Assembly: GCA_964411255.1 (NCBI GenBank)
Contig: CAYPKD010000005.1
Location: 5,547-69,546, forward strand
Length of the DNA: 64,000 nucleotides
Reading direction: 5' to 3'
Source: an uncultured Gammaproteobacteria bacterium
GTDB taxonomy: Bacteria > Patescibacteriota > Patescibacteriia > UBA11705 > DATKZF01
The first letter of the stretch is position 1, and every line of letters starts with the position of its first letter. Of this stretch, positions 1 through 64,000 are shown one piece after another. The notes under the pieces were generated by a model. It searched no databases, was not told the DNA's origin, and saw only the letters and a program-made list of their open reading frames with translations. The position numbers and the translations under genes were made by a program.

Positions 1-1
1 T

Positions 2-3000
2 AATAAATGGAAGGAAACTCAATTGGAGGAATTAGAAGAAAGTTTTAGCCAAGTTCAAAAAGAGCTAAAAGATTTAGAACCAATGCAGATTTTACCTGAA
101 AATGTTTACCAGGATTTATCACTTAAATACGGTCATGTTTTTGATGCTGGAATCGGTGCTGATGCTCTTAGGAAATTGTTGCAAAAAGTTGATTTAGAAG
201 CATTAATAAAAAAGCTTGAAGTAGAAATAAAGAAAGAGAAGGTAACAAAAAAGAAAAAAGCAATTAATAGAGTAAAACTATTAAAAAGTTTGAGAAGAAC
301 AGGCATTAAGCCTGAATGGATGGTATTGACCTCAGTCCCAGTCATTCCTCCTGATTTGCGGCCAATGGTGCCATTAGATGGCGGACGGTTTGCCACATCT
401 GATTTAAATGATTTATATAGAAGAGTTATCAGTAGAAATAACCGTCTTAAAAGATTGGTGGATTTGCGTGCCCCAGAAGTTATCTGCAGAAATGAGAAGA
501 GGATGCTTCAGGAAGCAGTGGACGCTTTGATAGATAATTCTGCCAGAAAGGCGAAGACGACTACGGCTTCAACAGGCCAAAAGAGAAATTTAAAATCAAT
601 TGCTGATTATCTTAAAGGTAAGCAGGGGCGTTTTAGACAAAATTTATTAGGAAAAAGAATTGATTATTCTGGACGAAGCGTGATTGTAGTAGGTCCTCAC
701 TTAAAATTACATCAGTGTGGTCTGCCAAAGAAAATGGCTTTAGAATTATTTAAACCATTTATTATTTCTAGACTGATTAAGGAAGAATATGTCCATAATA
801 TTCGAAGCGCAAATCGGTTTATTGAAGCGGACAGATCTGAGGTGTGGGATATTTTAGAAGATATCGTAAAGGGCGCTCATGTATTATTAAATCGTGCGCC
901 GACTCTTCATCGTTTGGGTATCCAGGCTTTTCAACCAGTTTTAATTGAAGGTAAAGCAATTAAATTGCATCCTTTGGTTTGTTCTGCATTTAATGCGGAT
1001 TTTGATGGCGACCAAATGGCTGTGCACGTCCCATTAACTGAAGAAGCAAAAGCGGAAGCAAAGGAGAGAATGCTATCAATTAGAAATTTGTTAAAACCAG
1101 CTACTGGCATGCCAGTTACTCAACCATCAATGGATATGGTATGGGGAAGCTATTATTTAACTGAAATGATTGATAAAGAAAAACCAAAATATTTTAGTGA
1201 TAGTAAAGAAGCAAAATTAGCTTATGACTTGCGAAAAATCACATTACAAGAAAAAATATTGGTTAAAGTTACAACCTCTTCAGATTTGAAAGCAAAAGTA
1301 AAAGATAATATTCTTGAAACAAGTATTGGAAGGATAATTTTTAATAAAATATTTCCAGAAAAAATGCCATTTTATAATGAATTAGTTGATAAGAAAAAGC
1401 TAGCCTCTATCGTAAGTTATGCAATAGAAAAATATGGATTTGATGGTACGTCGAAGATTTTAGATAATATTAAGGAATTAGGTTTTATGCAGCTAACCAA
1501 GTCAGGGTATTCATGGGGTATGGATGATTTACCAAAACTGCAGGGAAAAGAAGAATTAATTAAGGAAGGGAATAAAAGAGTAGATGAAGTTCAGATGCAA
1601 TATGAATCTGGATTATTAACTGAAGATGAGCGATATAGCAAAGTAATTGAAATTTGGACTGAAATAAAGGAGAAAGTAATACAATTAAGTCAGAAAAGCT
1701 TAATTGAAGATGGGCCAGTATATACAATGATAACCTCAAATGCCAGAGGCTCATGGGGTCAGCTTACACAGATGATGGGCATGAAGGGATTGGTGACAAA
1801 CCCAGCAGGTCAAATTATTGAATTACCGGTTAAAGCGAACTTTAAGGAAGGTTTTTCTGTGTTGGAATATTATATTTCTACCCATGGTGCCCGTAAAGGT
1901 TTGTCAGATACTGCGTTAAGAACTGCGAACGCAGGATACTTGACCAGAAGATTAGTTGATGTTTCCCAGGACGTAGTAATTATTAAAGAAGATTGCGGTG
2001 AAAAAGAAGGTAAGTTATATACAAAGGAAGAAAGTGATAATATTGGCCAAAGTTTGGTTTCCAGAATTATTGGCCGATATTTATTAGAAGATATAAAGCA
2101 TCCGAAAACTAAAAAAGTGATTGTCAAAAAAGGAGAAGTAATATCTTTGTCAATTGCTAGAGAATTGGAAAAAATTGATTTGCAAGAGGCCCGGGTGAGA
2201 ACTGTTTTAAACTGCAAACTCAATCGTGGCTTATGTCAAAAATGCTATGGCTATGATTTATCTTATAACAAGCCGGTTGATTTAGGGTCTGCTGTAGGTA
2301 TTATTGCTGCGCAGAGTATTGGTGAACCAGGAACCCAGCTTACTATGAGAACTTTCCATACTGGTGGTGTAGCTGGTCAAGATATTACCCAAGGTTTGCC
2401 GAGGGTTGAAGAAATATTTGAAGCTCGTCCACCAAAGAAGAAAGCATTGTTAAGTGAGGCCACTGGAAAAGTATCTATTATTGAAAAACCTAGAGTCATC
2501 CAAGGACCAAAAGGTGAAATTATAGCTCAAACTGCATTTGGAGAAAGGACTATAAAAATTAAATATAGAGAGGAAGAAGTTGATACATATAATTTTAAAG
2601 ATTCTAAAAAAGTTGAATTAGTGGTAAAGGATAATGCTAAGGTAAAACAAGGCGATTTACTCTTCACTGAAGGCCGTAAAAAAATAAAGGCTGTAAGAGA
2701 CGGTGTATTAAATATCGAAGAGAAAGGTGTAAAGATAGTAAATGATATAAATAAGGAAAAGGAATATATTATTCCAGCAGGTGTTACAGTTTGGGTAAAA
2801 GACGGTGACAAAGTGCAAAAAGGTGATCAGCTGACTGAAGGAAGTATAAATCTTGAGGAATTATATAACCTTAAAGGCAAAGATGCTGTCCAGCAGTATA
2901 TATCAAATGAAATTCAGTACATTTATTCATCTCAGGGACAGAAATTAAATGATAAGCATGTTGAGGTTATTTGCCGTCAAATGTTTTCTAGGGTTTATAT

Positions 3001-6186: not shown

Positions 6187-6241
6187 ATTACCAATATACA
6201 AATTAATATAAAATATTACAAATAATAACAAATATACAAAT

Positions 6242-7327
6242 ATGCCATTGTACAGAATTATTTTAAAAAAAGCATGGAAGATTAGTTTGAAAAATAAATG
6301 GCTTTGGTTTTTAGGATTTTTTGCTGCCTTTTTAAGTAATGAAAGTATTTATGAATCTATCATTGGTGGATTTACAAATAAGTTTCAGGGTCAGGATTTT
6401 GTTTTCCTGACTAAAGACTTTTTAGGTGTTGGGTTATTAGATATTTTTCAATGGTCATTTTTAAAATCATGGTGGACTTCAGGAAGTATTACTTTTACTT
6501 TTTTGTTATTGGTTACAATAGCTTTTATTTGTTTATTATTATTCTTTGTCTTTGTTTCAATTATTTCCCAGGCAGGATTGATCAAGTCAGCAATTGCCAT
6601 TGATGTAAAAAAAACATACAGCCTAAAAAAAGCTTTGCAGGATGGTATTGAGAAGTTTTGGTCTGTATTGGCGCTGAATGTGATTACAAAAGTCGTTTTA
6701 TTTGGAGTATTGGTGATTGTTGCATATTTATTTTCTGCATTAATAAAATTAAATCCAGTTAATTTTATTGATTACGTTTTGTATGTGATCTTTATTGCAT
6801 TATTGGTTTTTGGCGCATTGATAATATATTATTTAACAATTTATGGCACTGCTTTTATAATGCTCAGAGGAAAAAAAGTTTTTGATAGCTTAAGACTTTC
6901 ATGGCACATTTTTGTAAAAAATATATTGATAAATTTAGAAATGGCTTTGATTTTATTTGTGTTCGTAATATTGTTAACCATAGTATATTTAATTGTTCTG
7001 TTTGTATTAGGAACCCCATTAGTTCTGCTATACATGCTTTTAGGCTTTGCTGCAGCAGAAAAAGGGGTGATTATTGTCGCTGCTTTAGCTGTATTACTGT
7101 TTATTATTGTTACAGTATTTTTCGGAGCCTGGTATTCTACATTTCAAATCACATGCTGGGCTTTGCTATTTGAAGAATTGGTGTTGAAAAAAGGACGATC
7201 AAAGTTTCTAAGAGTTTTAGATGCGATTTTTGGTAAAAGTAAAAGGAAAAAATTAAACAAAGGGAAAATAAAAAAAATTGCCCGAAAGACTGTAAAGAAG
7301 GGTAAGAAAAGTTTAAGAAGAAGATAA
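6242..7327 (+). CDS. Polytopic membrane protein with Lys/Arg-rich C-terminal tail
   Basis: Multiple hydrophobic helices. Tail is KSKRKKLNKGKIKKIARKTVKKGKKSLRRR. No recognisable family. Confidence 0.8.
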   Translation: MPLYRIILKKAWKISLKNKWLWFLGFFAAFLSNESIYESIIGGFTNKFQGQDFVFLTKDFLGVGLLDIFQWSFLKSWWTSGSITFTFLLLVTIAFICLLLFFVFVSIISQAGLIKSAIAIDVKKTYSLKKALQDGIEKFWSVLALNVITKVVLFGVLVIVAYLFSALIKLNPVNFIDYVLYVIFIALLVFGALIIYYLTIYGTAFIMLRGKKVFDSLRLSWHIFVKNILINLEMALILFVFVILLTIVYLIVLFVLGTPLVLLYMLLGFAAAEKGVIIVAALAVLLFIIVTVFFGAWYSTFQITCWALLFEELVLKKGRSKFLRVLDAIFGKSKRKKLNKGKIKKIARKTVKKGKKSLRRR

Positions 7328-8999: not shown

Positions 9000-9022
9000 A
9001 ATAATGAAAGGAGAATATTACC

Positions 9023-11005
9023 ATGAATGTAACAGAATTAGCTAGAATATTAAAAGTTCCGACAAGCGAGCTTTTGGATAAACTGCCAAAGCTTGGTTTT
9101 AGTATTGGGAAAAAAGCGATAAAGGTAAATGATAAATTAGCTCAGCAGATTATGATCGCCTGGCGAGCGCAGGAAAAGCAAAAGGTACAAGAAGAAAAAT
9201 ATTTATCAACAAAAGATCAGGAAGAAGAAAAGGAAGTGATTGAAAAAGGTGAGGTAAATATCCCACCTGTTTTAACGGTAAGAGATTTTTCAAAAATATT
9301 AAATATGCCTGTTACTGAAGTGATTGCAGAATTAATGAAAAATGGAGTCATGGCATCAGTAAACCAGCGTATTGATTATGATACAGCTGCAATTATTGCA
9401 GAAGAATTGGGATTCCAACCAACAGAAGAGGATGTGGAAGCCAAGTTTGAAGTCGATAAATCAGTAAGAGTTAAGGAAGTTTTAGAAAAAGAAAAAAAAT
9501 TATTAGACCGGGCGCCTGTTATTGTAGTTCTTGGCCATGTTGATCATGGAAAGACAAAGCTTTTGGATGCAATAAGAAAAACAAATGTTGTTGAAGGCGA
9601 GGCCGGAGGAATTACCCAACACATTGGTGCTTATCAAGTGAAAAAACAAGGAAGAAAAATTACTTTTATTGATACTCCAGGACATGAGGCATTTACAGCT
9701 ATGCGTTCCCGCGGAGCAAAAATAGCAGACATTGCCATTTTAATAATTGCTGCTGATGATGGCATTAAGCCACAGACCGTTGAAGCGTTAAAAATTGCCC
9801 AGGAAGCGGGTTTGACAATTGTAGTTGCTATCAATAAAATTGACAAGCCCGCTGCAAATGTTGAAAAAGTGAAGCAAGAGCTAACAAAATATAATTTATT
9901 ATCAGAAGAATGGGGAGGCAAAACAATTTGTGTTCCAATATCAGCGAAACAAAATATTGGCATTGATGAATTATTAGAACAGATTTTATTAGTGGCAGAC
10001 ATGGAAGCTGAAAAAATCGTAGCCAATCCGGAAGGACAATTTATTGGAAGTACGATTGAATCGCATGTTGATAAGAACGTAGGACCGGTAGCCACTGTTT
10101 TAGTGAAAAATGGAACGTTAACAAAAGGAGATTTGTTATCTGGTGATGGCGAGTATTTTGGAAAAGTAAGAGCAATGAAAAATTATAGAGGTGAAGAATT
10201 AGACGAGGCCGGCCCATCAGTCCCTGTTCAAATCATCGGTTTTAAGGTGGCGCCAAAAGTAGGAGATGTTATTGAAGTTGGTGGAGATATGAAAAAAGCT
10301 CGAAGAAAAACAGATTATTATAAATTAACAAAAGAAGAGGAATTTGTTAAAACGTCGCATGACTCAGAAGATAATGAAGAAAAAGAAGGCATTACAAAGC
10401 TGGCTATTGTTTTACGAACCGATGTTTTAGGCTCCCAGGAGGCGATTATTGAATCTTTAGAAAAAATTGAAACTGATGATATAAAAATAGACATTGTATC
10501 AAAAGGACTGGGCAGTGTAAATGAATCAGATGTGTTGGCTGCAGAAGCCAGTAATGCAATGCTTTTGGGTTTTAATGTTATTCCTTCAAACGCAGCTGAA
10601 GCACTGGCCAGAGATAAGGGTATTGAAATAAAAACATTTAAAATAATTTATGAAATAATTGATGAGGTGAAGGCACGGCTGAATGAACTTATTAAGGCTG
10701 AATTAATCAGGGAAGATTTAGGTAAATTGGAGGTTTTAGCGTTATTTAAAAAAACAGATAAAGGGCATATCATCGGGGGCAAAGTAATTGAAGGAAAAAT
10801 AGAGGCAAACACCAGTGCGGCAGTAATAAGAAATAAGGCATTTATAGGACTGGGTAAAATTACAGAGCTACAATCGGGAAAACAGGAGGTAAAAGATGTT
10901 CAAAAGGGCCAGGAAGCCGGACTTTCATTTGAAGGACAGGCTGATATTGAAATTGGCGATATTTTAGATATTTATCGTGAGCGGGAACAGAAGAAAGTCA
11001 TTTGA
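9023..11005 (+). CDS. infB: Translation initiation factor IF-2
   Basis: GHVDHGKT, DTPGHEAF and NKID GTPase motifs. One of the few core genes with an SD (AAAGGAG). Confidence 0.97.
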   Translation: MNVTELARILKVPTSELLDKLPKLGFSIGKKAIKVNDKLAQQIMIAWRAQEKQKVQEEKYLSTKDQEEEKEVIEKGEVNIPPVLTVRDFSKILNMPVTEVIAELMKNGVMASVNQRIDYDTAAIIAEELGFQPTEEDVEAKFEVDKSVRVKEVLEKEKKLLDRAPVIVVLGHVDHGKTKLLDAIRKTNVVEGEAGGITQHIGAYQVKKQGRKITFIDTPGHEAFTAMRSRGAKIADIAILIIAADDGIKPQTVEALKIAQEAGLTIVVAINKIDKPAANVEKVKQELTKYNLLSEEWGGKTICVPISAKQNIGIDELLEQILLVADMEAEKIVANPEGQFIGSTIESHVDKNVGPVATVLVKNGTLTKGDLLSGDGEYFGKVRAMKNYRGEELDEAGPSVPVQIIGFKVAPKVGDVIEVGGDMKKARRKTDYYKLTKEEEFVKTSHDSEDNEEKEGITKLAIVLRTDVLGSQEAIIESLEKIETDDIKIDIVSKGLGSVNESDVLAAEASNAMLLGFNVIPSNAAEALARDKGIEIKTFKIIYEIIDEVKARLNELIKAELIREDLGKLEVLALFKKTDKGHIIGGKVIEGKIEANTSAAVIRNKAFIGLGKITELQSGKQEVKDVQKGQEAGLSFEGQADIEIGDILDIYREREQKKVI

Positions 11006-11006
11006 T

Positions 11007-11038
11007 TAAGGTGGTAGGCCGGTAGGATGGTAGTTTAA
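11007..11038 (+). repeat. TAGNNNGG-type 8-mer array
   Basis: TAAGGTGG TAGGCCGG TAGGATGG TAGTTTAA. Confidence 0.6.
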
Positions 11039-11134
11039 TTGAAGAAATATAAACTACTTGCTATTCTATTCTAACTTTTTTAATTTTCAATATTTTGATA
11101 TAATAAAATAGTCTCTAATAAATAAAATAAAAAT

Positions 11135-12509: not shown

Positions 12510-12620
12510 AAACAGATCAACGGATAGCAACAGATACAACGGAAATCAATTAATATCCGTTTCATCTGTTGTAGATCTGCCAGTCCTGAGCTTGTCGAAG
12601 GGTTGATCCGTTTGAATAAT
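12510..12620 (+). repeat. Shared intergenic hairpin element, copy 1 (abuts the gdh ATG)
   Basis: AACAGATC AACGGATA GCAACAGA TACAACGG.. words and inverted partners. The 3' end GTTGATCCGTTTGAATAAT runs into the ATG. Carries a 30-nt insertion ..GTCCTGAGCTTGTCGAAGG. Confidence 0.75.
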
Positions 12621-13844
12621 ATGAATGCATTTGAAAACGCAATGCAGCAACTTGATAATGCTGCGAAAATAATTAATTTAGATGAAAAAGTGCTTCAGTC
12701 ATTAAAAAGGCCTCAAAAGATAATTGAGGTTTCTTTGCCTGTGAAAATGGATGACGGCTCGTTAAAGTTTTTTGAAGGTTATCGCGTTCAATATAATAAT
12801 TGGCGAGGGCCATTCAAAGGCGGCATTCGGTTCTTTCCAGAAGTTGACAAGGACGAAGTAAAAGCTTTATCGTTTTGGATGACCATAAAGTGCGCTGTTT
12901 TAGATTTGCCGCTTGGAGGCGGAAAAGGCGGTGTTACTGTAAACCCGAAAGAACTTTCAGAAAAAGAGTTGGAAAATTTAAGCCGCGTTTATACCCGGGC
13001 TTTATATAATGACATTGGACCAGACAAAGATGTACCAGCGCCAGATGTTTATACCACTCCTCAAATTATGTCCTGGATGGCTGATGAGTATTCAAAAATT
13101 AAGAAAAAAAAGACACCAGGCGTGATTACCGGAAAACCGCTTGAAGCTGGAGGCTCTGAAGGCAGAAGTACAGCTACGGCTCAGGGAGGATTTTATTTGC
13201 TAAAGCACATTATGGAAATTGAGCAGAGAAAGCCTGAAAATCAAACAGTGGCTATTCAGGGATTTGGCAATGCAGGCTCAGTAATGGCGCAGCTTTGTCA
13301 TCAGGATGGATTAAAAGTAGTGGCAGTTTCAGATTCAAAAGGAGGAATTTATAAAAAAGATGGGTTAGACATTAAAAAAGTTATTGAACATAAAAAAGAA
13401 ACTGGATCAGTGCAAAATTTTGAAAATGCAGAAAATATTTCAAATGAAAAATTATTAGAGCTTGATGTGCAGTTTTTAGTGCCTGCAGCTTTAGAAAATC
13501 AAATAACGCGAAATAACGCAAATAAAATTGACGCCAACATTATTATTGAGCTGGCTAATGGACCGATTACGCCTGAAGCAGACATTATTTTATTTGAAAA
13601 AGGAATAAATGTTGTTCCAGATGTGCTGGCAAATGCAGGTGGGGTGACAGTTTCATATTTTGAATGGTATCAGAATGTAAATAATGAAAAATGGACAGAA
13701 AAAAAGGTTTTTGAAAAATTAAAACCCAAAATGATTGAAAATTACGATCAGGTTTTTGAAAAACGAAATGAATTTCAGGTTGATATGAGGCGGGCAGCGT
13801 TTGTGTTGGCCTTGGAAAGACTAAAGCAAACCTTTCCTTTTTGA
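12621..13844 (+). CDS. gdhA: Glutamate dehydrogenase (Glu/Leu/Phe/Val dehydrogenase family)
   Basis: KGGIRF and PLGGGKGG motifs. Start moved to ATG 12621 (MNAFENAM..); the track extension translates the repeat element. Confidence 0.9.
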   Translation: MNAFENAMQQLDNAAKIINLDEKVLQSLKRPQKIIEVSLPVKMDDGSLKFFEGYRVQYNNWRGPFKGGIRFFPEVDKDEVKALSFWMTIKCAVLDLPLGGGKGGVTVNPKELSEKELENLSRVYTRALYNDIGPDKDVPAPDVYTTPQIMSWMADEYSKIKKKKTPGVITGKPLEAGGSEGRSTATAQGGFYLLKHIMEIEQRKPENQTVAIQGFGNAGSVMAQLCHQDGLKVVAVSDSKGGIYKKDGLDIKKVIEHKKETGSVQNFENAENISNEKLLELDVQFLVPAALENQITRNNANKIDANIIIELANGPITPEADIILFEKGINVVPDVLANAGGVTVSYFEWYQNVNNEKWTEKKVFEKLKPKMIENYDQVFEKRNEFQVDMRRAAFVLALERLKQTFPF

Positions 13845-13871: not shown

Positions 13872-14530
13872 ATGGATAATATAGCTAAAAAGAAAATTGA
13901 TGAGATTTACTCAACAGGTCAAGTTGTCTCAGAATTTGACAAGACCACACACACCATCTTTCCAGTTTCCATAGACCCAGTAGAAGGAAAAAGTTTACAA
14001 GAAGTTGTTAAGCAAGAGAATCCAAAGACAGTGATAGAAATAGGACTTGGTTATGGTTTCGCTGCGTTGAATGTTTTTGCAGGAATAAATATCTCAAAAG
14101 GAAAAGATTTTAGATACATAACCATTGATCCTAATCAAGAGAGTCGTTTTTCAAATATTGGACTTCAACTATTACAAGAAATTGAGGCATCTGATTGCGT
14201 TGAGTTTCATAACTCTCTATCTGAGCTTGTATTACCGCACCTTATTGAAGCAAATGAAAAAGCAGATTTCGCAATAGTGATGGTAATCACAGATTCGAAC
14301 ATGTTTTTGTAGATTTATTTTATCTGGATCGAATCTTAAAACCAGGTAGCATAATTTTTCTTGATGACTTTCAATTACCTGGAATTCAAAAAGTTGTTTC
14401 ATTTTTTGTAAATAATATTGAATGGAAAATTGAAGCAGAAGGAAGTATTTCAAAGGATCATCATTGGGTAACGTTACGAACTCGATCTGAAGTCTTGGAG
14501 CGAGATTATGATGCTTTTACTGATTTCTAA
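13872..14530 (+). pseudogene. Class I SAM-dependent O-methyltransferase (Methyltransf_24-like), frameshifted
   Basis: Motif I is VIEIGLGYGFAAL. The frame breaks near 14278-14283 (ATAGTGATGG). The +1 frame continues DGNHRFEHVFVDLFYLDRILKPGSIIFLDDF.. to the stop at 14530. Confidence 0.7.
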
Positions 14531-14541
14531 AACGAATAAAT

Positions 14542-15081
14542 ATGCTTGGATTGAATCGTAAAAATGTGAAATTATCAAAATATCATCCGGGCTGGAAAAA
14601 GGCTTTTGAGGATGAAAAGACAGCTATCCAAAAGAAATTAGGAGAATCCGTATTAGATATTGAACATATCGGCTCAACATCAATTCCAGGAATGAGTGCA
14701 AAGCCTGTTCTTGATTTTATGATTGCAGTAAAATCAGTTGATGACTATGAAAAATTTGTTGAGCCTCTAAAAAAACTTGGATACAAATTTCGAAGAGACA
14801 ACAGAGAAATTCAGGAACACATTTTATTTGTAAAAGGTCCTGAGGATTTAAGAACCCACTATCTCAAACTAACTGAAAAAGACTCTGAATTCTGGAAAGA
14901 ACATATTTTGTTCCGTGATTATTTAAGAAATCATCCTAAAACGGCTAGGGAATATCAAGAACTAAAAGAAAACCTGCAGGAATCTCTTGGGTCAAGCAGG
15001 GCTACTTACACTGAAGCTAAAGCAGAATTTATCCAAAAGATACTTAGACTGGTAAAAGCTGAGGAAAAGGCTAAACAGTAA
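14542..15081 (+). CDS. GrpB (UPF0157) family protein
   Basis: IEHIGSTSIPGMSAKPVLDFMIAV motif typical of GrpB. Confidence 0.85.
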   Translation: MLGLNRKNVKLSKYHPGWKKAFEDEKTAIQKKLGESVLDIEHIGSTSIPGMSAKPVLDFMIAVKSVDDYEKFVEPLKKLGYKFRRDNREIQEHILFVKGPEDLRTHYLKLTEKDSEFWKEHILFRDYLRNHPKTAREYQELKENLQESLGSSRATYTEAKAEFIQKILRLVKAEEKAKQ

Positions 15082-15736: not shown

Positions 15737-15772
15737 TATTTTTTATTCATAATCAAAAAAGAGGGGGAGATC

Positions 15773-15892
15773 ATGGATTCACCATTTTGGCATCAAGTAA
15801 TTTGGATATTTGGTATTGTTGGAACATTATGTGTAGGTGCATTAATTTATTATTTAATTCGATGGTTAAAAGGGAAAAAAGAGATAAACTAA
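15773..15892 (+). CDS. 39-aa single-pass membrane peptide (below the track size cutoff)
   Basis: SD AGAGGGGGAG lies 4 nt before the ATG. Sequence MDSPFWHQVIWIFGIVGTLCVGALIYYLIRWLKGKKEIN. Own terminator follows. Confidence 0.55.
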   Translation: MDSPFWHQVIWIFGIVGTLCVGALIYYLIRWLKGKKEIN

Positions 15893-15931: not shown

Positions 15932-16059
15932 ATTATGAGATTACCACGATGTGGTCACTTCGTGACAAGATCCATAATACGAGATAATACAGATTACAGA
16001 TAGTACAAGATTAGCGGATTCCAAATAGTAATAAGCAATCAGCAATTAACAATCATTCC

Positions 16060-16133: not shown

Positions 16134-16454
16134 ATGTCGAGAAGAAAAGACAGAGAAGAATCCAAACCAGGCGGTACGTATGATATTCCACTTGAAAAAG
16201 TGGTTGTCACAGCTCCTGGGCAAAAACCAGATGAAGTTGCTGCAAAAAAGCAGATTGCTCAAAAGGTTTTGAGTAGCCTGCCGCCTGCAGTGGACCGGGG
16301 TTTGCGAGTGGCGTTTGGTATTCCAGTGCCATCGAGTATGCCACTTTCTCAAAAAGAGGGCGCCAGCCCAGAAACAAAAGTTGAAATTGCAAAAATTGAA
16401 CGCAGGGCCTTGGAGCGGCTTCAAACGCAACAAGCAGTTGATTCATTAAAATAA
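16134..16454 (+). CDS. 106-aa hypothetical protein with a C-terminal IERRALERL helix reminiscent of sigma-70 region 4.2
   Basis: Strong SD AAGGAGGGG. G+C-richer than flanks. Antisense ORFs 16116..16433 and 16207..16446 lack an SD. Confidence 0.6.
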   Translation: MSRRKDREESKPGGTYDIPLEKVVVTAPGQKPDEVAAKKQIAQKVLSSLPPAVDRGLRVAFGIPVPSSMPLSQKEGASPETKVEIAKIERRALERLQTQQAVDSLK

Positions 16455-21167: not shown

Positions 21168-21203
21168 TAAATATAATATATTATTTTATAAGGAGGTGCT
21201 ATT

Positions 21204-42198: not shown

Positions 42199-42205
42199 AT
42201 ATTTT

Positions 42206-42245: not shown

Positions 42246-42246
42246 A

Positions 42247-47465: not shown

Positions 47466-47472
47466 TTTATAT

Positions 47473-48024
47473 ATGAAAGAAATAAGAATACATGGGCGAG
47501 GTGGTCAAGGCACAGTTACTGCAGCTGAACTTTTAGCAATGGCAATTTTTTTTGATGGCAAATATTCTCAAGCTTTTCCAAACTTTGGAGTAGAAAGAAG
47601 GGGTGCGCCTGTAGAATCATATGTTAGAATTGGCAAAAAGCCAATCAGGCTGCGTTCCCAGATTTATAAGCCAGACTTTTTAATCATTATGGATTTAAGT
47701 TTATTAGATTTGCAGCAGGTTTTAGCAGGTACAAATAAGGATACGATTGCGCTGGTTAATAGCGAGGTAAAACGAAAATTAAAGGGAATGAAATCGTATC
47801 ATATACCTGCCACTTCTGTTGCCCTAGAAGCGATTGGCAGTCCATTGCTTATCAATACGGCATTAATGGCAGCCTTTATTACAATAACTAAATTGGTTGA
47901 TTTTGATTCATTGATAAAGGCAGTACAAGAAAGATTTTTATATAAGGGAGAAGAAGTAGTTAAAAAAAATATTATTGCAATGAAAGTGGCGAAAAAATTT
48001 ATGGAAGAAGAATACAGCTTGTAA
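47473..48024 (+). CDS. porC: 2-oxoacid (pyruvate):ferredoxin oxidoreductase gamma subunit
   Basis: IRIHGRGGQG..AFPNFGVERRGAP motif. Confidence 0.9.
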   Translation: MKEIRIHGRGGQGTVTAAELLAMAIFFDGKYSQAFPNFGVERRGAPVESYVRIGKKPIRLRSQIYKPDFLIIMDLSLLDLQQVLAGTNKDTIALVNSEVKRKLKGMKSYHIPATSVALEAIGSPLLINTALMAAFITITKLVDFDSLIKAVQERFLYKGEEVVKKNIIAMKVAKKFMEEEYSL

Positions 48025-49539: not shown

Positions 49540-49556
49540 TAATTTTGAGAATTGGA

Positions 49557-49633
49557 GGTTACGGAATTACGGAAGGTTACTGATATTACGGATATCCGTA
49601 GTATCCGTAATAATCAGTAAATCCGTAATCCCT
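49557..49633. repeat. 8-nt-periodic array with central inversion (TTACGGA words, then TCCGTAA words)
   Basis: GTTACGGA ATTACGGA AGGTTACT GATATTAC GGAT|ATCC GTAGTATC CGTAATAA TCAGTAAA TCCGTAAT. Centre at 49593/49594. Confidence 0.8.
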
Positions 49634-49640: not shown

Positions 49641-52118
49641 ATGAAAAAAATAATATTACTTACAATTCTTCTGGCATTAATTTGCACGTCTTTTTTAGTT
49701 GCTGCCAAGGTTAGTGCGTTTGAGCCTTTGGAAGAATTAATTCCAAGAATGAAAATCCCGATCCCGCAGCTTGAACCATTTCAAAAGCCTACTTATGTGG
49801 AAGAAGGAGGCAAGGGCTATATTTTCATTCCATGGATAGCCCAATATGTAAGTGCAATGTATAAATATGCTTTGGCTATTGGATCAATCATTGCTGTGAT
49901 TGCAGTTATGGTAGGAGGAATTTTATATTTAACCTCTGGCGGTGCGCCTGGCAGAATAGATCAGGGTAAAAATATTATTATTGGTGCTATTACCGGACTT
50001 TTAATTATAATTTTTTCTTATATCTTTTTAAATACAATTAATCCTGAACTGGTGAATCTTAAGGCTATTAGAATTCAAGCTGTAAAACAAGAAGCATTAG
50101 TGGTTGGAAATAATTGTAAGGATTTGGGAGCTGGATTTATAGTCAGAACTCCAAGCGGAGAAAAAGAAGGAACAACAGGTAATGCCCAGTATTTTGCATG
50201 CGGCAGTTCATATCCAGTAAGGTCAGGGGCAGCAGATGTGATTGTTCCCGAAGGTCAGAATTGCGATGGGGCGTATTGCCAAAAGGGTGCTTGCGAGACT
50301 GTTGATGGTAAACCACAGTGTGTGAATGCTTTGTTTACAGGAGAAATTACAGGAACGATGTTGTCCGGAGGAAGATATATTGATGAAGAATTTGAGCTTT
50401 GGGGCATGCCGGGAAATGGTCTTCTCGCAGCATTTCCAGTTCCATCTAAAGGACGATATGTTATTCCTTTAACAGCTGAATTAGAAAACAAACTAAATCT
50501 TGTAGACAAAGTGTATTTTCATCTACAGATAAATACCACAGGTGCTTATCCTTATTGGGCCTATAAAATTGGAAAGGAAGGAGTTGTTGATGTGGATTTG
50601 ATAAAAGAAACGGTAAAAAGTTATTTTAAAACTACAATAGATAGTGAATTTTATGCAGTAAAAAGTTATAAGGATCCAGAAAAAGCAATATGGGGATTCC
50701 CATACTCTCTAGATCAGATGTCCCCACTCAATCCTAGTTATGGTAATACCCCTTGTGATCCATGTTTTGTGATGCCTAGGAACGCTGAATGGCGATTTGA
50801 ACAGAGATTGCCTTGGTGTCAATTTTGGGAACCGACTGATCTTTTAGTAGCAGCAAAAAGTGGATCTGGAACAGTTGTAAATTTTAATATTGATGATTTT
50901 CCAGAATATCCTCAGTGGCCTCCACCGGTTCTAGTAAAAGAACTTCTATTAGATAATATTTCTGGATTACCTACGCCTGAATTTTTAAAGGGTGTTAAAT
51001 ACGAAGATATAGATTGGAATAATTTGGCTACAATCAATCCAGATTTATATCCTTATATGACTGATCCTGCTGAATTTTGTGTGGCTTCGAGTCAGTTAAC
51101 ATCTGCCTCTCCATTTCCTGGGACTCCATGTACTAGTCCGTTTGAGACAGCATTTGTTGCAGCTGATGATGCGAATGCGCCAGATGATTTAAAGGGGAAA
51201 ACATTATATTGTCGGCCTGCTGGTTATCAAGTCGGTTCAGGCACAGCAGTAGCAAAGTTTGAATGGACATTGGAAGATGCTAGGAAAGGAGATACGTGTG
51301 ATAATTTAAGTGTTGCTCAGAGTTTTCCAGGACAATTTTCAGCTGGACAAACAGCAAAAAACGATGGACAGCCATTTGTTAATTGTGAATCTGGCGTTAG
51401 TTGCCAATGGGTTAGCGGTGATGTAGGAGAATGTATAAATGGTTTAACATATTGTTTTGGGTTTTGTGAAGATGATGAAGCAGTATTGTCTATGGGAATT
51501 GGAGATCCATGCAGAGATGGCACCTGCCTTCCATATAAAGGATCAATAGAATTAAAATGCGTTTTAAATGGAAATGCCAGGGAATGTTTATTAGGCACAT
51601 GGGGATCATTTTGCAATACTGATAACGACTGTAAAGACGGTTTTGAATGTATTAAGCATGACACTACAACTACTGATGAAGTTCAATTTTGTGCAAAAAA
51701 GAATGCAGGAAGATGGCAGGCATGTGGAGATAAAATTAGCGGTAGTGGTACGAATTGTTCTTCTGGATTGGATTGTGAGCAAGTAGAATACGGAGAAGAA
51801 GGTGATAGTGACGCACAGTGTGATACAGGCCATTGGTCTGGAGCAGATACTAATAATTTGAAATTTTGTCTTGAAAGTACTTATGATGATAATAATCATG
51901 GGATCTGCTCCTGTTCAAATAATAGTAATTGTGCCAATACTTATGGTTGGGATTCTGGTGCAAATTATTGTAATTTAGCAGGTTATGAATATTGTTCTCA
52001 AAAAGTTGAAGGCGCATGGTGTAAAGTAGAGGGAAAAACAACACCAGACAATTATTTTTGCCATGGTGTAGGAGGTGAGTATGGAGTTTTACATCAAAAG
52101 ATTTCAACTAGTCAATAA
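49641..52118 (+). CDS. 825-aa secreted/membrane protein: T4SS-pilin-like (TrbC/VirB2-type) N-terminal module plus large Cys-rich ectodomain
   Basis: Signal peptide. IPWIAQYV..GGILYLTSGGAPGRIDQGKNIIIGAITGLLIIIFSYIFLNTINP. About 40 Cys counted by eye in the C-terminal 680 aa. Confidence 0.8.
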   Translation: MKKIILLTILLALICTSFLVAAKVSAFEPLEELIPRMKIPIPQLEPFQKPTYVEEGGKGYIFIPWIAQYVSAMYKYALAIGSIIAVIAVMVGGILYLTSGGAPGRIDQGKNIIIGAITGLLIIIFSYIFLNTINPELVNLKAIRIQAVKQEALVVGNNCKDLGAGFIVRTPSGEKEGTTGNAQYFACGSSYPVRSGAADVIVPEGQNCDGAYCQKGACETVDGKPQCVNALFTGEITGTMLSGGRYIDEEFELWGMPGNGLLAAFPVPSKGRYVIPLTAELENKLNLVDKVYFHLQINTTGAYPYWAYKIGKEGVVDVDLIKETVKSYFKTTIDSEFYAVKSYKDPEKAIWGFPYSLDQMSPLNPSYGNTPCDPCFVMPRNAEWRFEQRLPWCQFWEPTDLLVAAKSGSGTVVNFNIDDFPEYPQWPPPVLVKELLLDNISGLPTPEFLKGVKYEDIDWNNLATINPDLYPYMTDPAEFCVASSQLTSASPFPGTPCTSPFETAFVAADDANAPDDLKGKTLYCRPAGYQVGSGTAVAKFEWTLEDARKGDTCDNLSVAQSFPGQFSAGQTAKNDGQPFVNCESGVSCQWVSGDVGECINGLTYCFGFCEDDEAVLSMGIGDPCRDGTCLPYKGSIELKCVLNGNARECLLGTWGSFCNTDNDCKDGFECIKHDTTTTDEVQFCAKKNAGRWQACGDKISGSGTNCSSGLDCEQVEYGEEGDSDAQCDTGHWSGADTNNLKFCLESTYDDNNHGICSCSNNSNCANTYGWDSGANYCNLAGYEYCSQKVEGAWCKVEGKTTPDNYFCHGVGGEYGVLHQKISTSQ

Positions 52119-56191: not shown

Positions 56192-56227
56192 AACTATATT
56201 GACGAATATATAGATTTATAATATACT

Positions 56228-56254
56228 AAAAAATGCCTTTAATGGCATTTTTTG
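56228..56254 (+). terminator. Rho-independent terminator after uvrA
   Basis: AAAATGCC-TTTAAT-GGCATTTT followed by TT. Confidence 0.7.
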
Positions 56255-56310
56255 AATTTATTTAACCGCGCTTGCAGTAAACTTTGCTCTTTGAGGAGGG
56301 GAAAAAGAGC

Positions 56311-56622
56311 ATGACAATGACTGTTTCAACAGCAGAGGCCGAGCCTGGCAAGGCTCCATCAGAATTAATGGCTTGTCCGCATTGCGGAGCAATTGCCCAG
56401 AAAGGGGAAGATGGGCAATTAAAGCAGCCGTTAGATATGGATGAATTAGGTGATGAAGTTTTAAATCAACTTGATTTATTGTCTTTGGAAGATAAAGTAT
56501 ATATGCTGAATAATCGGCGAAATACCCGAATCTGGCAGGATTGGCTGGATAAGAATGGTTTTGACTATATTGCCTGCATTGCCTGCGGACATTTCTACCA
56601 GCCAGAGCAGGAGGAAAGCTGA
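56311..56622 (+). CDS. 103-aa zinc-ribbon protein (CPHC...CIAC)
   Basis: SD GAGGAGG. Start placed at ATG 56311. Antisense ORF 56258..56722 rejected. Confidence 0.6.
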   Translation: MTMTVSTAEAEPGKAPSELMACPHCGAIAQKGEDGQLKQPLDMDELGDEVLNQLDLLSLEDKVYMLNNRRNTRIWQDWLDKNGFDYIACIACGHFYQPEQEES

Positions 56623-56654
56623 AGGGTACTGAATATGAATCTAGGGAGTAGAAA

Positions 56655-56918
56655 ATGGTTGCCCGTGTCATTCCGTTAAACCGTGCTCCGCCTAAAGTGC
56701 AGCAAAAGCACTTGACGCACAAAATGAATCAGGCTTTGAGCAAATTGCCAACAAAAGTTGTAGATCAGCTTTTCAATGAGCAGGATGTTTCAAAGTTTAA
56801 TTCAATTGCCTTTGTTTGTGGCAGTTGGCGCTGCTCAAAATGCCACTTTTTTTCTGATATACATCGAATTGATTCGTCGTATTGCAGGAATTGTGGCAAA
56901 TATTTGTTTGGACTTTAA
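56655..56918 (+). CDS. 87-aa zinc-ribbon protein (C-x4-C-x2-C ... C-x2-C)
   Basis: SD AGGGAG. FVCGSWRCSKCHFF...YCRNCGKY. Confidence 0.6.
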   Translation: MVARVIPLNRAPPKVQQKHLTHKMNQALSKLPTKVVDQLFNEQDVSKFNSIAFVCGSWRCSKCHFFSDIHRIDSSYCRNCGKYLFGL

Positions 56919-56944
56919 CCGTCATCATTGTGGCGGTTTTTTTA
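56917..56944 (+). terminator. Rho-independent terminator
   Basis: AACCG..CGGTT followed by TTTTTTT. Confidence 0.55.
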
Positions 56945-57009
56945 TTGAAGTTAGAAAATAGAATTTAAAACCAATTTTTATTTTAAAAAACTGTCTAGGT
57001 TCAGACAGT

Positions 57010-57414
57010 TTATTTTTTATTTTCGAGAAGATGTTTCATTCTGTTAAATAATGCTTTTTTTTCTAATGGCTTATCCATATAATCATCCGCTCCATATAGC
57101 GGCGAAGTCATTTCGTTCAGCTGTGGTCCAATTCCGCTTACAATTAAAATTATTGATGGGGGAAATTTTGGATGAGTTTGTTCATAATATCTAATTCTCC
57201 GGCATGTTTCCCAACCATTTTGGACTGGCATCATTACATCCAGTATGACAAAATTTGGTTTTACTTTTTCAAAAACCTCAAAGGCCTCACATCCATCGTA
57301 TGCTTCAAAAATTTCTACTTCTTGCCCCTCTTCTGCAAATCTTTTACAAAGTTCTTTGTGCCAAAGATTACAGATTTCCATGTCATCATCAGCTATCAAA
57401 ATTCTTAATAGCAT
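57010..57414 (-). CDS. Stand-alone response-regulator receiver (CheY-like) protein
   Basis: SD AAGGAGGGG. ILIADDD, phospho-acceptor context FVILDVMMP, conserved K in YMDKP. Confidence 0.85.
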   Translation of the reverse strand: MLLRILIADDDMEICNLWHKELCKRFAEEGQEVEIFEAYDGCEAFEVFEKVKPNFVILDVMMPVQNGWETCRRIRYYEQTHPKFPPSIILIVSGIGPQLNEMTSPLYGADDYMDKPLEKKALFNRMKHLLENKK

Positions 57415-57503
57415 GACCCCTCCTTATGTTGCCTACAGGCATAAAAAAAATGGTACACTAAATGAGGAAAAAGATCAAGATTTTTTTAAAAAACCACCTA
57501 AAT

Positions 57504-57875
57504 TTAGGCGGTTTGATGTTGGGGGTCTTTCAGGATTATTTTTTTTAAATCAGATTCCTGAATTGGTTTGGGAATGGTGTAATCTGGTCCCCAACCTTTG
57601 ACCGGATTTTTTGAAAATTCTGTATCTGGTTTTACTCTGATTAAAGTAAATTTTAGAAAACGAGTAGCCTGCAATATTGGTTCTAATCTTTGCCTAGTAT
57701 TATCATCTACTAAAACAAATGATGGCTCTTGGGTTCTCAAAAACTCCATTGCTTTTTCTAAAACATCAGTGTTACACATTACTATGTTTCGAGGTTGATA
57801 GGTTGGATACAAAAATTTTTGCATGGCCTTAAAAATATCAAAGTCAGCTGAAATAATTAAAATTTTAAGTTTCAT
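57504..57875 (-). CDS. Receiver-like (pseudo-receiver?) domain protein
   Basis: SD GGAGGAGG. KILIISADFD replaces the acidic pair; FVLVDD retained. Confidence 0.6.
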   Translation of the reverse strand: MKLKILIISADFDIFKAMQKFLYPTYQPRNIVMCNTDVLEKAMEFLRTQEPSFVLVDDNTRQRLEPILQATRFLKFTLIRVKPDTEFSKNPVKGWGPDYTIPKPIQESDLKKIILKDPQHQTA

Positions 57876-57923
57876 GCCTCCTCCATTTATCCTCAGTTTA
57901 GATATTATCTTATATCAAAAATA

Positions 57924-57950
57924 AAAAATTGGCAATAGTAGCCAATTTTT
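57924..57950. terminator. Bidirectional terminator (after rplS)
   Basis: AAAAATTGGC-AATAGTA-GCCAATTTTT. Confidence 0.7.
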
Positions 57951-57958
57951 AGAAGAAT

Positions 57959-58285
57959 TTATTTTATCTCTTTTAATCTAGTATGAGATGTTCTTAAATA
58001 TCCCAATTTTGCCCGCCTGACTCTGTATGTTTTTGCTACTTCGATTTTTTCCAAAGTAGGCATGTGCAACGGAAATATTTTTTCAACTCCAACACCATCA
58101 GAAATTTTTCTGACTGTAATGGTCGCCCCGGGTTCTGATCCATGTCTTCTGGCTAAAACCATTCCTTCAAAAACCTGGATTCTTTCTTTTTCCTCGCCTT
58201 TTGGGTTTAGCTCCTTAATTTTTTGGTGAACACGAACAACCTTGCCTGGTTGAATTTCTGGATATAATTGTTTTTTTTCTGACAT
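57959..58285 (-). CDS. rplS: 50S ribosomal protein L19
   Basis: About 108 aa with conserved ERIQVFEG and TVRK segments. Confidence 0.93.
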   Translation of the reverse strand: MSEKKQLYPEIQPGKVVRVHQKIKELNPKGEEKERIQVFEGMVLARRHGSEPGATITVRKISDGVGVEKIFPLHMPTLEKIEVAKTYRVRRAKLGYLRTSHTRLKEIK

Positions 58286-58374
58286 AGAATTGTAGATTGA
58301 TAGTCTTTAGACTGTTTTTATTGTTTATGAGTAACACGCTAAAGTTTGTCATACTGGAAAAGAATTGTCAAGTT

Positions 58375-58994: not shown

Positions 58995-59034
58995 TAACAT
59001 ATAATAACATCATAACCTCGTAACTTCATAACTT
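58995..59034 (+). repeat. 8-nt-periodic word array (CATAACNN)
   Basis: TAACATAT AATAACAT CATAACCT CGTAACTT CATAACTT. Confidence 0.75.
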
Positions 59035-62577: not shown

Positions 62578-62626
62578 TGAATTACCGTGTTCTTTGAATA
62601 AAACCTCTTTGGGAAAGGGAAAAATC

Positions 62627-64000
62627 ATGCTTGATCTGAAGCGAAAAAAGCGCCGTAAGCCAAGAACTGAATTTAAGTATGAAGATTTTCGTGTTGTGAC
62701 TGAGCTTGATGTTCATCTGGCTCAGTACCTGCGGACTTTTCTTCACATTGACATTAGTCAATGGAATTTTTGCATGGATATTATCCGCCAGGGCCGGGCT
62801 TATACAACTGAGCTGCGGTCAAAAGGCAAAGGCAAAGGTACTCGAAAAATCTATAAGCCGCACAATGCGCTTAAAGTAGTGCAGCGGGCAATTAAGAACC
62901 GGATTCTAAAGCAGATCCCTGTTCATTTTGCCAGACATGGCGGGCCAGACGGCACCAGTACGATGACCAATGTGGCTCAGCATGCTGGATTTGCCAAAGC
63001 AGTTTTTTCTGTTGATCTGGTCAATGCCTATCCGTCAGTAACCCGTTATCGGGTAAAAAGAAATTTGGAAAAGCCGATTTCTTTTCTGCTAAAGCAGTTT
63101 ATGGGAGTGGAATTTTCAAAAGACGATGTTGAAAAAATGATTGAAGCAATTTGCGATTTGACATGTTACCATGATCGGGTGCAGCAGGGATTGCCATCTT
63201 CAGCAAGAATGTTGGACATTTGTTGCATGAAGCTGGATATGGACATTTTCAAGCTTCTTCATGACCAATCTTCTGCATTGCAGAAGTATCGGTATACTGC
63301 TTTTGTAGATGATCTGACAATTTCATCAAATGATGAAATTACAATTGAACTGATGCAGCAAATCATCGATACGATTGAAGCCAATGGCTTTATTCCCCAC
63401 ATAAGAAAAGATAAGACAAAGTATTTCAGCCGAAAAAGTGGTGAAGTGCCAGAGGTAACTGGCTTGGTAGTTAATGATGATGGCCGTATCACTATGGCTA
63501 AGGGAAAAGTCAACCAGATCAGGGGTACGCTTTTCAATATTTGCAAGCAAGTCAAATGGACAGAAGAAGACTTGAATAGAGTTAGGGGCCTGATCGCCTA
63601 TGTTAATATGGTTTACCCTGACAAGTTGCCCAGCAAGCTGAAAAAGATTGTTGATGCAGCGCAATTGCGAGTCAAAGCTGAACAGCTTGCCAGATTTAGC
63701 AGTTCTAAACCTGTTGAATTTTCAGCAGCGCAGGACGATGATGAAAAAGAAGTTGTCTCAGGTATTCTGTACACTGACGGCGCTTCTAAAAAGGGAATCG
63801 GAACTGTCGGAGTGGTGCTGCAAAAAGAAGGCAGAGTGGTGCGTGAGATTTCCAGTGTGATTGGCGCTGCCACAAATAATCAGGCTGAATATCAAGCCTT
63901 GATTACTGGTATGGAAGCAGCGCTTGAAGAAAATGTTACTGCTCTTGATTGTTTTTTTGACAGCAAGCTGATCTATAATCAGTTGAGCAAGAGTAATAAA
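62627..64000 (+). CDS. Retron-type reverse transcriptase fused to RNase HI-like domain, 3'-truncated by window edge
   Basis: My own translation: 458 codons open from ATG 62627 to nt 64000. RT motifs RKIYKPHNALKVVQRAIKNRIL, TNVAQH, SVDLVNAYPSV, QGLPSSARML, YTAFVDDLTISS, EVTGLVVN. From about aa 378: ILYTDGAS..ATNNQAEYQALITGMEAA..FFDSKLIYNQL. Confidence 0.88.
   Translation, partial: MLDLKRKKRRKPRTEFKYEDFRVVTELDVHLAQYLRTFLHIDISQWNFCMDIIRQGRAYTTELRSKGKGKGTRKIYKPHNALKVVQRAIKNRILKQIPVHFARHGGPDGTSTMTNVAQHAGFAKAVFSVDLVNAYPSVTRYRVKRNLEKPISFLLKQFMGVEFSKDDVEKMIEAICDLTCYHDRVQQGLPSSARMLDICCMKLDMDIFKLLHDQSSALQKYRYTAFVDDLTISSNDEITIELMQQIIDTIEANGFIPHIRKDKTKYFSRKSGEVPEVTGLVVNDDGRITMAKGKVNQIRGTLFNICKQVKWTEEDLNRVRGLIAYVNMVYPDKLPSKLKKIVDAAQLRVKAEQLARFSSSKPVEFSAAQDDDEKEVVSGILYTDGASKKGIGTVGVVLQKEGRVVREISSVIGAATNNQAEYQALITGMEAALEENVTALDCFFDSKLIYNQLSKSNK

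Follow-up and report, generated by a model that had tools for sequence, protein, structure and literature searches.

Two translation-start signals in a Patescibacteria genome segment and their relationship to core and flexible genes

The locus and the scoring of its start sites

The 64-kb stretch of contig CAYPKD010000005.1 examined here (hereafter the window; GC content ~35%) carries genes whose start codons are preceded either by a strong Shine-Dalgarno (SD) sequence or by a leader in which no such sequence is evident. A sequence-only reading of this DNA had assigned the SD sequences to G+C-richer islets of accessory genes and their absence to an AT-rich core. Pfam matches define a backbone that comprises the C-terminal part of rpoC, ftsH, infB, trxA, trxB, gdh, rnhB, leuS, and two TrmB regulators, as well as DUF11/DUF4012 envelope proteins, three GT4 glycosyltransferases, a sugar transferase, purA, trpS, and rnj. 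Also present are a family-5 solute-binding protein (SBP5), secG, a DsbA-like protein, uvrA, rplS, gmk, cca, rluD, and porCDAB, the last of which is broken by a Cys-rich T4SS-pilin-like gene. Approximately 18 open reading frames (ORFs) in the window have no Pfam domain. The only Rfam match in the window is an RNase P RNA (38152-38758, minus strand), and no tRNA genes were found in the 64 kb.

The nearest named relative, as judged by leuS (77% identity), is a metagenome-assembled genome labeled "Patescibacteria group bacterium". Together with the gene content, this relationship assigns the organism to the candidate phyla radiation (CPR, or Patescibacteria). An assembly chimera was ruled out, as several samples independently yielded the same 388,698-bp contig.

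Start sites were re-derived by listing all candidate starts of each gene together with their upstream sequence. The SD score is the ViennaRNA duplexfold energy of positions -22 to -3 paired to 5'-ACCUCCUUU-3', with 2,058 non-start ATGs serving as background, and genes at or below -7.4 kcal/mol were termed SD-led. Fifty-five window genes were scored (16 SD-led, 39 SD-less). This number rose to 65 (24 SD-led, 41 SD-less) with the addition of 8.5 kb past the end of the window (L175) and of the 6.6 kb that precede it (L176), which contribute seven further SD-led hypothetical genes and rpoB. The complete sample thus consists of about 80 kb of one genome plus pieces of roughly 20 kb from six others, with start sites that are inferred throughout.

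Related loci were reached through protein searches with purA, leuS, and the product of the gene at 33354, followed by contig look-ups, and through one metagenome scan with uvrA. In L093, L087, and L088 (GC 34-38%), leuS and purA are 91% and 85% identical to their counterparts in the window. The leuS gene is 77% identical in L090 (GC 46%) and 75% identical in L092 and L177 (GC 44-46%), purA is 72% identical in L086 (GC 38%), and uvrA is 71% identical in L095, the sole useful relative recovered by the metagenome scan. An additional locus, L178 (GC 29.5%), belongs to an unrelated member of Patescibacteria. A leuS scan of a genome collection gave 61% identical Firmicutes and assorted CPR genomes as its best matches and found no close relative, because leuS is too conserved.

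Two kinds of start signal

The SD energies of the 55 window genes are bimodal. One group of sixteen genes spans -7.4 to -12.4 kcal/mol, the next gene is found at -5.5 kcal/mol, and the rest score -4.0 kcal/mol or higher. The threshold is reached by 29% of starts versus 2.1% of the non-start ATGs, which is a 14-fold enrichment (binomial p=2.6e-14). The division into two groups made by the sequence-only reading therefore stands in nearly all its particulars. Every SD string that it quoted was found in place, all genes that it listed as SD-less score at least -4.0 kcal/mol, and the two islet genes that it named as lacking an SD, 32744 (stop-start coupling, TAAtATG) and 33111, indeed have none. 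The reverse transcriptase (RT) gene at 62627 had been counted among the genes with an SD, but its match (GGGAAAGGGAAAAATC) is the weak one at -5.5 kcal/mol and leaves it outside the SD-led class. The SD before 34635 is present as described, and the start codon there is GTG. For several other genes a different start is likely (12621 for gdh, 15119 for rnhB, 16631 for leuS, 48439 for porA, and a GTG at 46395 for SBP5), and all of these genes are still SD-less.

The SD-less genes, which we call class I, share a signal of their own that is absent from the sequence-only reading. A T residue occupies position -1 in 37 of the 41 SD-less genes of the window and flanks, compared with 21% in the background (binomial p=5e-21) and with a far lower frequency in SD-led genes (Fisher p=3e-10). 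This T(-1) is the dominant element (87-90%) of a leader in which G is nearly absent from positions -6 to -1 (0-8%) and A is enriched at -6 (67%), -4 (59%), and -3 (51%). The second and third codons of these genes are A-rich as well. The region from -30 to +30 is weakly folded, with a median of -3.4 kcal/mol versus -7.15 kcal/mol for random 60-mers (p=9e-8), and SD-less starts even fall below background in their likeness to an SD (median +0.4 versus -1.65 kcal/mol, p=1e-5).

In contrast, the 24 SD-led genes, or class II, have the consensus (A)AAGGAGG at energies of -7.4 to -12.4 kcal/mol, and the best GGAGG match lies 1-11 nt from the start codon, typically at 4-8 nt and with most cases at 5-8 nt. 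Their starts have none of the three features of the SD-less class: T(-1) occurs in only 3 of 24, and the median folding energy of the -30 to +30 region (-8.35 kcal/mol) is no different from that of random 60-mers. The same separation was obtained independently of gene calls when each ORF of 100 aa or more was assigned its first ATG as the start. By this approach, 11 of 48 starts are SD-led, and T(-1) is present in 31 of the 37 SD-less starts, in none of the 11 SD-led starts, and at 19% of internal ATGs.

RNA polymerase commonly starts at a purine that has a pyrimidine before it. T(-1) could therefore be this pyrimidine if the SD-less mRNAs were leaderless, and the sequence TATACT, which is located 9 nt before the ATG of 33111 and is conserved in L087, would suit such an arrangement. 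However, T(-1) is present in 14 of the 15 SD-less genes that are located no more than 40 nt (down to an 11-nt overlap) behind a same-strand upstream gene, and no -10 box was found at a fixed distance before SD-less starts, where A at -11 reaches 54% and T at -7 reaches 36%. Leaderless transcripts were rejected as the cause of class I on these grounds, and we regard this explanation as very improbable. Three SD-less starts serve as examples:

47443-47475, plus strand: start of porC within an operon, 7 nt past the upstream gene (...aatagtttatatATG), with T(-1), no nearby G, and no SD
28905-28937, minus strand: start of GT4b (28907), 4 nt past GT4c (...agataaaagtATG), with T(-1)
58283-58315, minus strand: start of the ribosomal protein gene rplS (58285; ...atctacaattctATG)

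Some SD-less leaders have additional features. The leaders of gdh (12526-12623) and leuS (16559-16633), both on the plus strand, have in common a segment of about 52 nt with 87% identity (AGCAACRGATACAACGGAAATCA...), as well as an identical stretch, TTGATCCGTTTGAAYAATATG, that reaches into the start codon. The similarity could reflect a shared regulatory leader or a duplicated intergenic element. Tandem repeats with periods of 7-10 nt cluster in intergenic DNA, such that 25 of 57 arrays fall in the 12.4% of the sequence that is non-coding (p=4e-9). Examples are located at 6193-6243, 11012-11033, 12511-12540, 15974-16055, 38047-38066, 42199-42260, 49556-49595, and 58995-59034. They often adjoin SD-less start codons on the upstream side, and leaders in relatives carry similar repeats with other unit sequences. 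One 8-nt periodic repeat, CTACCRAT (GGTAGNNN on the plus strand), is present just upstream of the starts of both the sugar transferase gene and trpS (38020-38074 and 42194-42248, sense of the minus strand), and also, inverted, in the interval from infB to trxA (11003-11041, plus strand).

Tandem repeats with periods of 7-9 nt are also present within the class A RNase P RNA, which holds four arrays (38337-38372, 38458-38499, 38606-38639, and 38655-38675). This RNA is 607 nt long, versus 367 nt for the model, and its length in L087 (469 nt) and L086 (599 nt) indicates that the insertions vary. The Cys-rich gene inserted between porA and porB (49641-52118, plus strand) encodes 825 aa with a weak T4SS-pilin domain, and the insertion has been kept in relatives at only 29-50% identity.

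The SD-led genes of the window are as follows, with the coordinates of each SD given first:

9007-9013, plus strand: AAAGGAG of infB (start 9023), the only clearly core SD-led gene of the window
15761-15769, plus strand: GAGGGGGAG of a gene for a 39-aa membrane peptide (15773-15892, GC 28%), whose orthologue and SD are kept in L093 and L090
16121-16130, plus strand: AAAGGAGGGG of a 106-aa gene (16134-16454, GC 46%)
21190-21198, plus strand: AAGGAGGTG of a gene for a 64-aa basic protein (21204-21398, GC 47%)
27405-27413, plus strand: AAAGGAGAG of a 110-aa gene (27421-27753, GC 32%)
31947-31956, minus strand: TAAGGAGAAG of a near-orphan 570-aa gene (30231-31943, GC 31%), with the 13-mer TAACAAACCTGCC before the SD
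34205-34213, minus strand: AAAGAGAGG of a 281-aa gene (33354-34199, GC 47%)
34642-34648, minus strand: AAAGGAG before the GTG start at 34635 (gene 34318-34635)
35573-35578, minus strand: GGGAGG of a gene for a 146-aa basic protein (35127-35567), the strongest composition outlier (GC 61%, 62% at third codon positions)
36098-36104, plus strand: AAAGGAG of a 144-aa gene (36111-36545, GC 33%)
38873-38881, plus strand: AAGGAGGAA of a 257-aa gene (38887-39660), which is absent from L086 and L177
41083-41091, minus strand: AAAGGAGGG of purA (39724-41076), with an SD in four lineages whose leaders have diverged
56293-56301, plus strand: GAGGAGGGG of a 103-aa gene (56311-56622)
56642-56648, plus strand: TAGGGAG of an 87-aa gene (56655-56918), the weakest member of the class (-7.4 kcal/mol)
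57417-57425, minus strand: AAGGAGGGG of a gene for a single-domain response regulator (57010-57414, Pfam)
57877-57884, minus strand: GGAGGAGG of a 123-aa gene (57504-57875), CheY-like by eye only and without a Pfam match

As a group, SD-led genes are shorter than SD-less genes (139 versus 325 aa), and a Pfam domain is missing from 13 of 16 in the window, versus 5 of 39 SD-less genes (p=2e-6). Searches of the SD-led hypotheticals against Pfam, PHROGs, and NCBIfam revealed no useful family, and no PHROG or NCBIfam assignment was obtained for any of them. Given that several of these ORFs are short (39-110 aa) and belong to no database family, they might be considered annotation artefacts, selected because GGAGG happens to precede an ATG. 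We consider this hardly credible. The ratio of nonsynonymous to synonymous substitution rates (dN/dS) relative to orthologues in close relatives is 0.07-0.42 for the 6 of 13 hypotheticals that were tested, versus 0.04-0.13 for core genes, as would be expected of real genes under purifying selection, albeit weaker selection than that acting on the core. Moreover, there are positional orthologues in L093, L087, and L090, the gene at 33354 has 147 homologues, independent metagenome gene calls list the same ORFs, and SD scores of this strength arise by chance in 2% of cases.

SD status, base composition, and the flexible gene pool

The description of the SD-led genes as belonging to G+C-richer islets fits only about half of the class. 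Gene GC content is slightly higher for SD-led than for SD-less genes (0.372 versus 0.347, p=0.018), but GC content at third codon positions (GC3) does not differ (p=0.23). About half of the SD-led genes have a GC3 of 0.40-0.62, versus 0.27 for the genome, and the rest are host-like. Only 5 of 24 exceed the GC content of every SD-less gene, and 8 of 24 are at or below the SD-less median, including 15773 (28%), 31943 (31%), 27421 (32%), and h69, just outside the window (22%). With GC3 equal and a third of the SD-led genes at or below core GC, composition was rejected as the main explanation of SD status, and a missing Pfam domain is a much better correlate. At positions +4 to +33, GC content is 0.38 in SD-led and 0.27 in SD-less genes (p=3e-5).

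SD status is also linked to the variability of genes among relatives. All window proteins were compared with the related loci by tblastn, and a gene was termed variable when missing in at least one distant relative spanning the site. By this measure, 14 SD-led genes are variable and 2 are conserved, whereas 7 SD-less genes are variable and 29 are conserved (Fisher p=5e-6). The proposal that an SD marks the accessory fraction of this genome thus holds as a statistical rule, though not as a strict one, as there are exceptions in both directions.

Three hotspots hold differing and often GC-rich SD-led cargo in different relatives. Two are located within the window:

30231-36545: variable island from the GT4 genes to the sugar transferase gene, with seven genes, five of which are SD-led
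56192-57958: uvrA-rplS spacer, with four SD-led genes; in L095, rplS directly follows uvrA

At the first of these sites, L086 carries other small genes, two of which are SD-led at 53-58% GC, and L177 carries an SD-led gene at 64% GC. The third hotspot is downstream from rluD, where the window has a gene encoding an RT with RNase H and L095 has an island of 55-60% GC. Presence/absence polymorphism at conserved flanks is evident for the 30.2-36.5 kb island, for 38887, for 27421, and for the four uvrA-rplS genes. In addition, synonymous divergence (dS) to L087 is just 0.21 for 38887 and 0.23 for 36111, versus about 0.8 for the adjacent purA and sugar transferase genes, which suggests recent exchange of the former two. 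A horizontal origin for individual genes is suggested by presence/absence, composition, and dS discordance.

Several genes of these variable regions have further distinctive features. The 13-mer TAACAAACCTGCC just 5' of the SD of the 570-aa gene (31958-31970, minus strand) occurs twice in L095 (19388-19400 and 22022-22034, minus strand). There it occupies the same position before GC-rich island genes, follows a TTGACA-N17-TATCAT promoter, and is within a direct repeat of about 200 nt. The 13-mer may be a 5' untranslated region element shared by island genes. The N-terminus encoded by 38887 (MRRVRQLTYFVVISFILMYVNGC) looks by eye like a lipoprotein signal, and the 3' end of this gene contains a 24-nt tandem repeat in 5.4 copies (39513-39656, plus strand) that encodes an Ala/Lys-rich repeat. 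The RT gene (62609-64000, plus strand, and beyond) encodes a 530-aa protein in which a reverse transcriptase is joined to a C-terminal RNase H domain, a combination unusual in bacteria. Beyond the gene (L175 5414-9883) come about 2.9 kb with 41-47% GC, no called gene, and no Rfam match, and then SD-led genes that include an AAA_5 ATPase gene.

The same two start grammars are present in five related genomes with GC contents of 34-46% (L086, L090, L092/L177, L093, and L095) and in the unrelated L178. In these relatives, T(-1) and the lack of an SD characterize the conserved genes, and a strong SD without T(-1) precedes a minority of small genes. In Firmicutes control loci, which came from the leuS scan, 32-79% of ORFs are SD-led and T(-1) is not in excess. 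Orthologues of purA, 15773, 16134, 27421, 33354, 35567, 36111, and 38887 have kept their SDs. The L090 positional orthologues of 15773, 16134, and 27421 are only 24-43% identical (leuS is 77% identical), and all have a strong SD, with that of 27421 reading AAAAGGAGGTGG; this last gene is absent from L086. Orthologues of 16134 are SD-led in L093 (72% identity, dN/dS 0.23) and in L090 (43% identity, GC 57%). The gene at 33354, with its 147 homologues, belongs to a family that occurs across Patescibacteria, and the homologue in L178 is SD-led with about 48% GC in a genome of 29.5% GC. The SD of infB is weak in L090 and absent in L092, so it is not conserved, and purA has an SD in four lineages (AAAGGAGGG, GGAAAGGGGG, AAAAGGAGAA, and AGAGAGG). 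The persistence of SDs after synonymous sites have become saturated and flanks have diverged indicates that these sequences are under selection.

The purA gene belongs to a divergent clade with identities of 85, 77, 75, 72, and 53%, after which identity falls to about 37% for ordinary purA. Its base composition stands out in all of its hosts (GC 40% against 35% for the genome here, and 59% against 45% in L177, 10001-11377). The divergent clade and the same syntenic position in four lineages rule out a recent transfer of purA from ordinary bacteria.

A ribosome that may read both signals, and comparison with known systems

We consider it probable, although by no means certain, that the ribosome of this organism reads both signals, such that core genes are translated independently of SD pairing, and genes that are mobile or specific to a lineage arrive with a functional SD and retain it. 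For class I, which comprises about two thirds of the genes, nearly all of them conserved housekeeping genes, the 30S subunit would load on an open leader without rRNA pairing. The start codon would then be fixed by the initiator tRNA, plausibly helped by pairing of U(-1) with A37 of tRNA-fMet as a fourth base pair. The remaining third, class II, with its mostly small, fast-evolving, and variable genes, would rely on classical SD:anti-SD pairing. Genes that move between genomes would bring a portable, host-independent SD, one reason being that GC-richer 5' coding regions cannot meet the need of class I for an open leader. Once a gene is resident, its SD would be kept by purifying selection.

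The U(-1):A37 pair has experimental backing in Escherichia coli and in chloroplasts (Hollerer and Jeschek 2023, PMC10018350), with the chloroplast case attributed there to Esposito et al. 2003. Here, such pairing is presumed from the start sites, as is a canonical anti-SD (CCUCC) at the end of the organism's 16S rRNA. Conserved SDs argue that a working anti-SD has probably been kept in the clade. Modest indirect evidence for an active anti-SD comes from GGAGG, GGAG, and GAGG, which are rarer within coding regions than in synonymous-codon shuffles (z -2.4 to -2.65); control motifs show no such depletion.

The sequence-only reading had posed a choice between islets acquired from SD-using donors and an SD-dependent class maintained by the organism. 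This either/or is too simple, as there is evidence for both at once. Acquisition is supported because hotspots carry differing SD-led cargo and because the dS values of two genes are about fourfold below those of their neighbors. Maintenance is supported because orthologues keep the SD after dS saturation and flank divergence, and because several SD-led genes have a fully host-like composition.

A number of observations weigh against a ribosome that reads both signals. An Rfam search identified no rRNA in the window, in six loci from relatives, or in 10-kb extensions on each side, and an anti-SD cannot be taken for granted, as Tsurumaki et al. (2022, PMC9297842) detected the motif in just 48% of the 16S genes of Parcubacteria. 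The depletion of internal SD motifs is modest and could stem from codon-pair bias. The link between SD and variability is imperfect in that two conserved genes, infB and purA, are SD-led (as is, probably, a third, rpoB, which lies beyond the window), while seven variable genes are SD-less, including the O-methyltransferase gene (OMT) at 13872, GrpB 14542, 32744, 33111, and 60648. The islands revealed no integrase, transposase, tRNA gene, or flanking repeat, with the RT-RNase H gene at 62627 being the only element of this type. Finally, a foreign origin is not evident for the 8 of 24 SD-led genes whose GC content is host-like or lower. The OMT and GrpB genes (13872-15081, plus strand), which separate gdh from rnhB, are missing in each of the three relatives covering their site (L093, L090, and L092), and both are SD-less with T(-1).

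Some of these same facts could be taken to mean that the SDs are relics. Genes from SD-using donors would have retained them as non-functional leftovers in a host whose anti-SD had been lost or hidden, and would be translated poorly or by the SD-less route. Many Parcubacteria 16S genes without the anti-SD motif (PMC9297842), the variation of 14 of 16 SD-led genes among relatives, the atypical GC3 of about half of the class, and the failure of PHROG and NCBIfam to place any member are all compatible with this view. However, unselected motifs of 6-9 nt would be expected to decay, whereas orthologues retain theirs despite saturated dS (>0.8) and altered leaders. Strong SDs also precede genes with fully host-like composition (GC 22-33%), SD-led starts offer no alternative signal (T(-1) in 3 of 24 and ordinary structure), and GGAGG is depleted in coding regions. 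We therefore judge relic signals to be quite unlikely. The 3' end of the organism's 16S rRNA would bear directly on this matter, because the presence of CCUCCUUU would support dual reading and its absence would support the relic model.

Slightly less unlikely, but still doubtful, is that the SD-led genes form a regulon. In this scenario the anti-SD would normally be sequestered, for instance by bS21, bS18, and bS6, and the SD-led set would be translated by a ribosome subpopulation or under certain conditions, so that an SD would be a mark of co-regulation rather than of origin. A precedent comes from three reports on Flavobacterium johnsoniae (PMC9976891, PMC13000453, PMC7797042), whose ribosome is described as SD-blind and whose SD-led rpsU gene is described as autoregulated through bS21. 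In the window, the core is likewise SD-less, and the SD-led set is partly conserved and contains two CheY-like regulators (57010-57414, by Pfam; 57504-57875, by eye). However, Bacteroidia have essentially one gene with a strong SD, compared with 24 of 65 here, and the SD-led genes are heterogeneous and mostly variable, unlike a conserved regulon. The genes for bS21, bS18, and bS6 of this organism lie outside the examined sequence.

The dual-reading ribosome can be extended to a bolder proposal, which we offer as speculation with rather poor odds. The clade would have evolved a discrete start code for its core genes, consisting of an unstructured, G-free leader and an obligatory U(-1) quadruplet, and would have kept the SD as a separately controllable channel almost exclusively for flexible, host-interaction, or mobile genes. 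Core and accessory proteomes might then be adjusted separately, at the level of initiation, by the cell or by its mobile elements.

Mixtures of SD and non-SD starts within a genome are well known, and the SD is usually tied to highly expressed, essential genes. Here the association is reversed, with an SD-less core and an SD-led flexible genome. To our knowledge, a near-invariant U(-1) has not been described as a class-defining bacterial signal. In 2011, Scharff and coworkers reportedly found that SD-less mRNAs are translated through a local lack of structure in cyanobacteria, plastids, and many bacteria. The SD-less starts of the window are similarly located in a local structure minimum, but what was a gradient across genes in that work takes the form of discrete classes here, with membership that correlates with gene conservation. 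GeneMarkS-2 is said to recognize classes of genomes in which a promoter-like leaderless signal accompanies a ribosome binding site. Two start signals in one genome are a point in common, although the second signal in our case is not leaderless.

If the two grammars extend genome-wide, they could permit better gene finding and start annotation in CPR bacteria, where first-ATG and SD-based models would mis-call starts. SD status would then be a cheap sequence marker of the flexible gene pool in genomes of this clade, and the U(-1):A37 quadruplet model could be tested in a natural system. The anti-SD loss reported for part of the Parcubacteria would be tied to their actual mRNA start regions, and the few cultivable Patescibacteria would gain a guide to the design of expression cassettes.

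Among published systems, the work of Tsurumaki et al. (PMC9297842) concerns the same superphylum and likewise indicates less reliance on SD pairing in CPR bacteria, but it examined rRNA, whereas our observations concern mRNA starts. As in the quadruplet pairing described for U(-1):A37 (PMC10018350), in which a U residue directly 5' of the start codon favors initiation, the class I sequence is UAUG. In E. coli, this interaction modestly modulates SD-led mRNAs, whereas here the U residue is near-universal in the SD-less class.

The closest known system is the SD-independent initiation of Bacteroidia, as described for F. johnsoniae (Baez et al. 2019, PMC6847099; Jha et al. 2021, PMC7797042; McNutt et al. 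2023, PMC9976891). In both cases housekeeping genes lack an SD, initiation appears to be tuned by low structure and upstream A residues, and a minority of genes have a strong SD. The dominant upstream determinant is A(-3) in Bacteroidia and U(-1), at ~90%, here. A strong SD in Bacteroidia is essentially restricted to rpsU, and the ribosome is SD-blind with a sequestered anti-SD, whereas about a third of the genes are SD-led in the present case and their SDs are conserved in orthologues. Also unlike the situation in Bacteroidia, the SD class described here maps onto the flexible genome.

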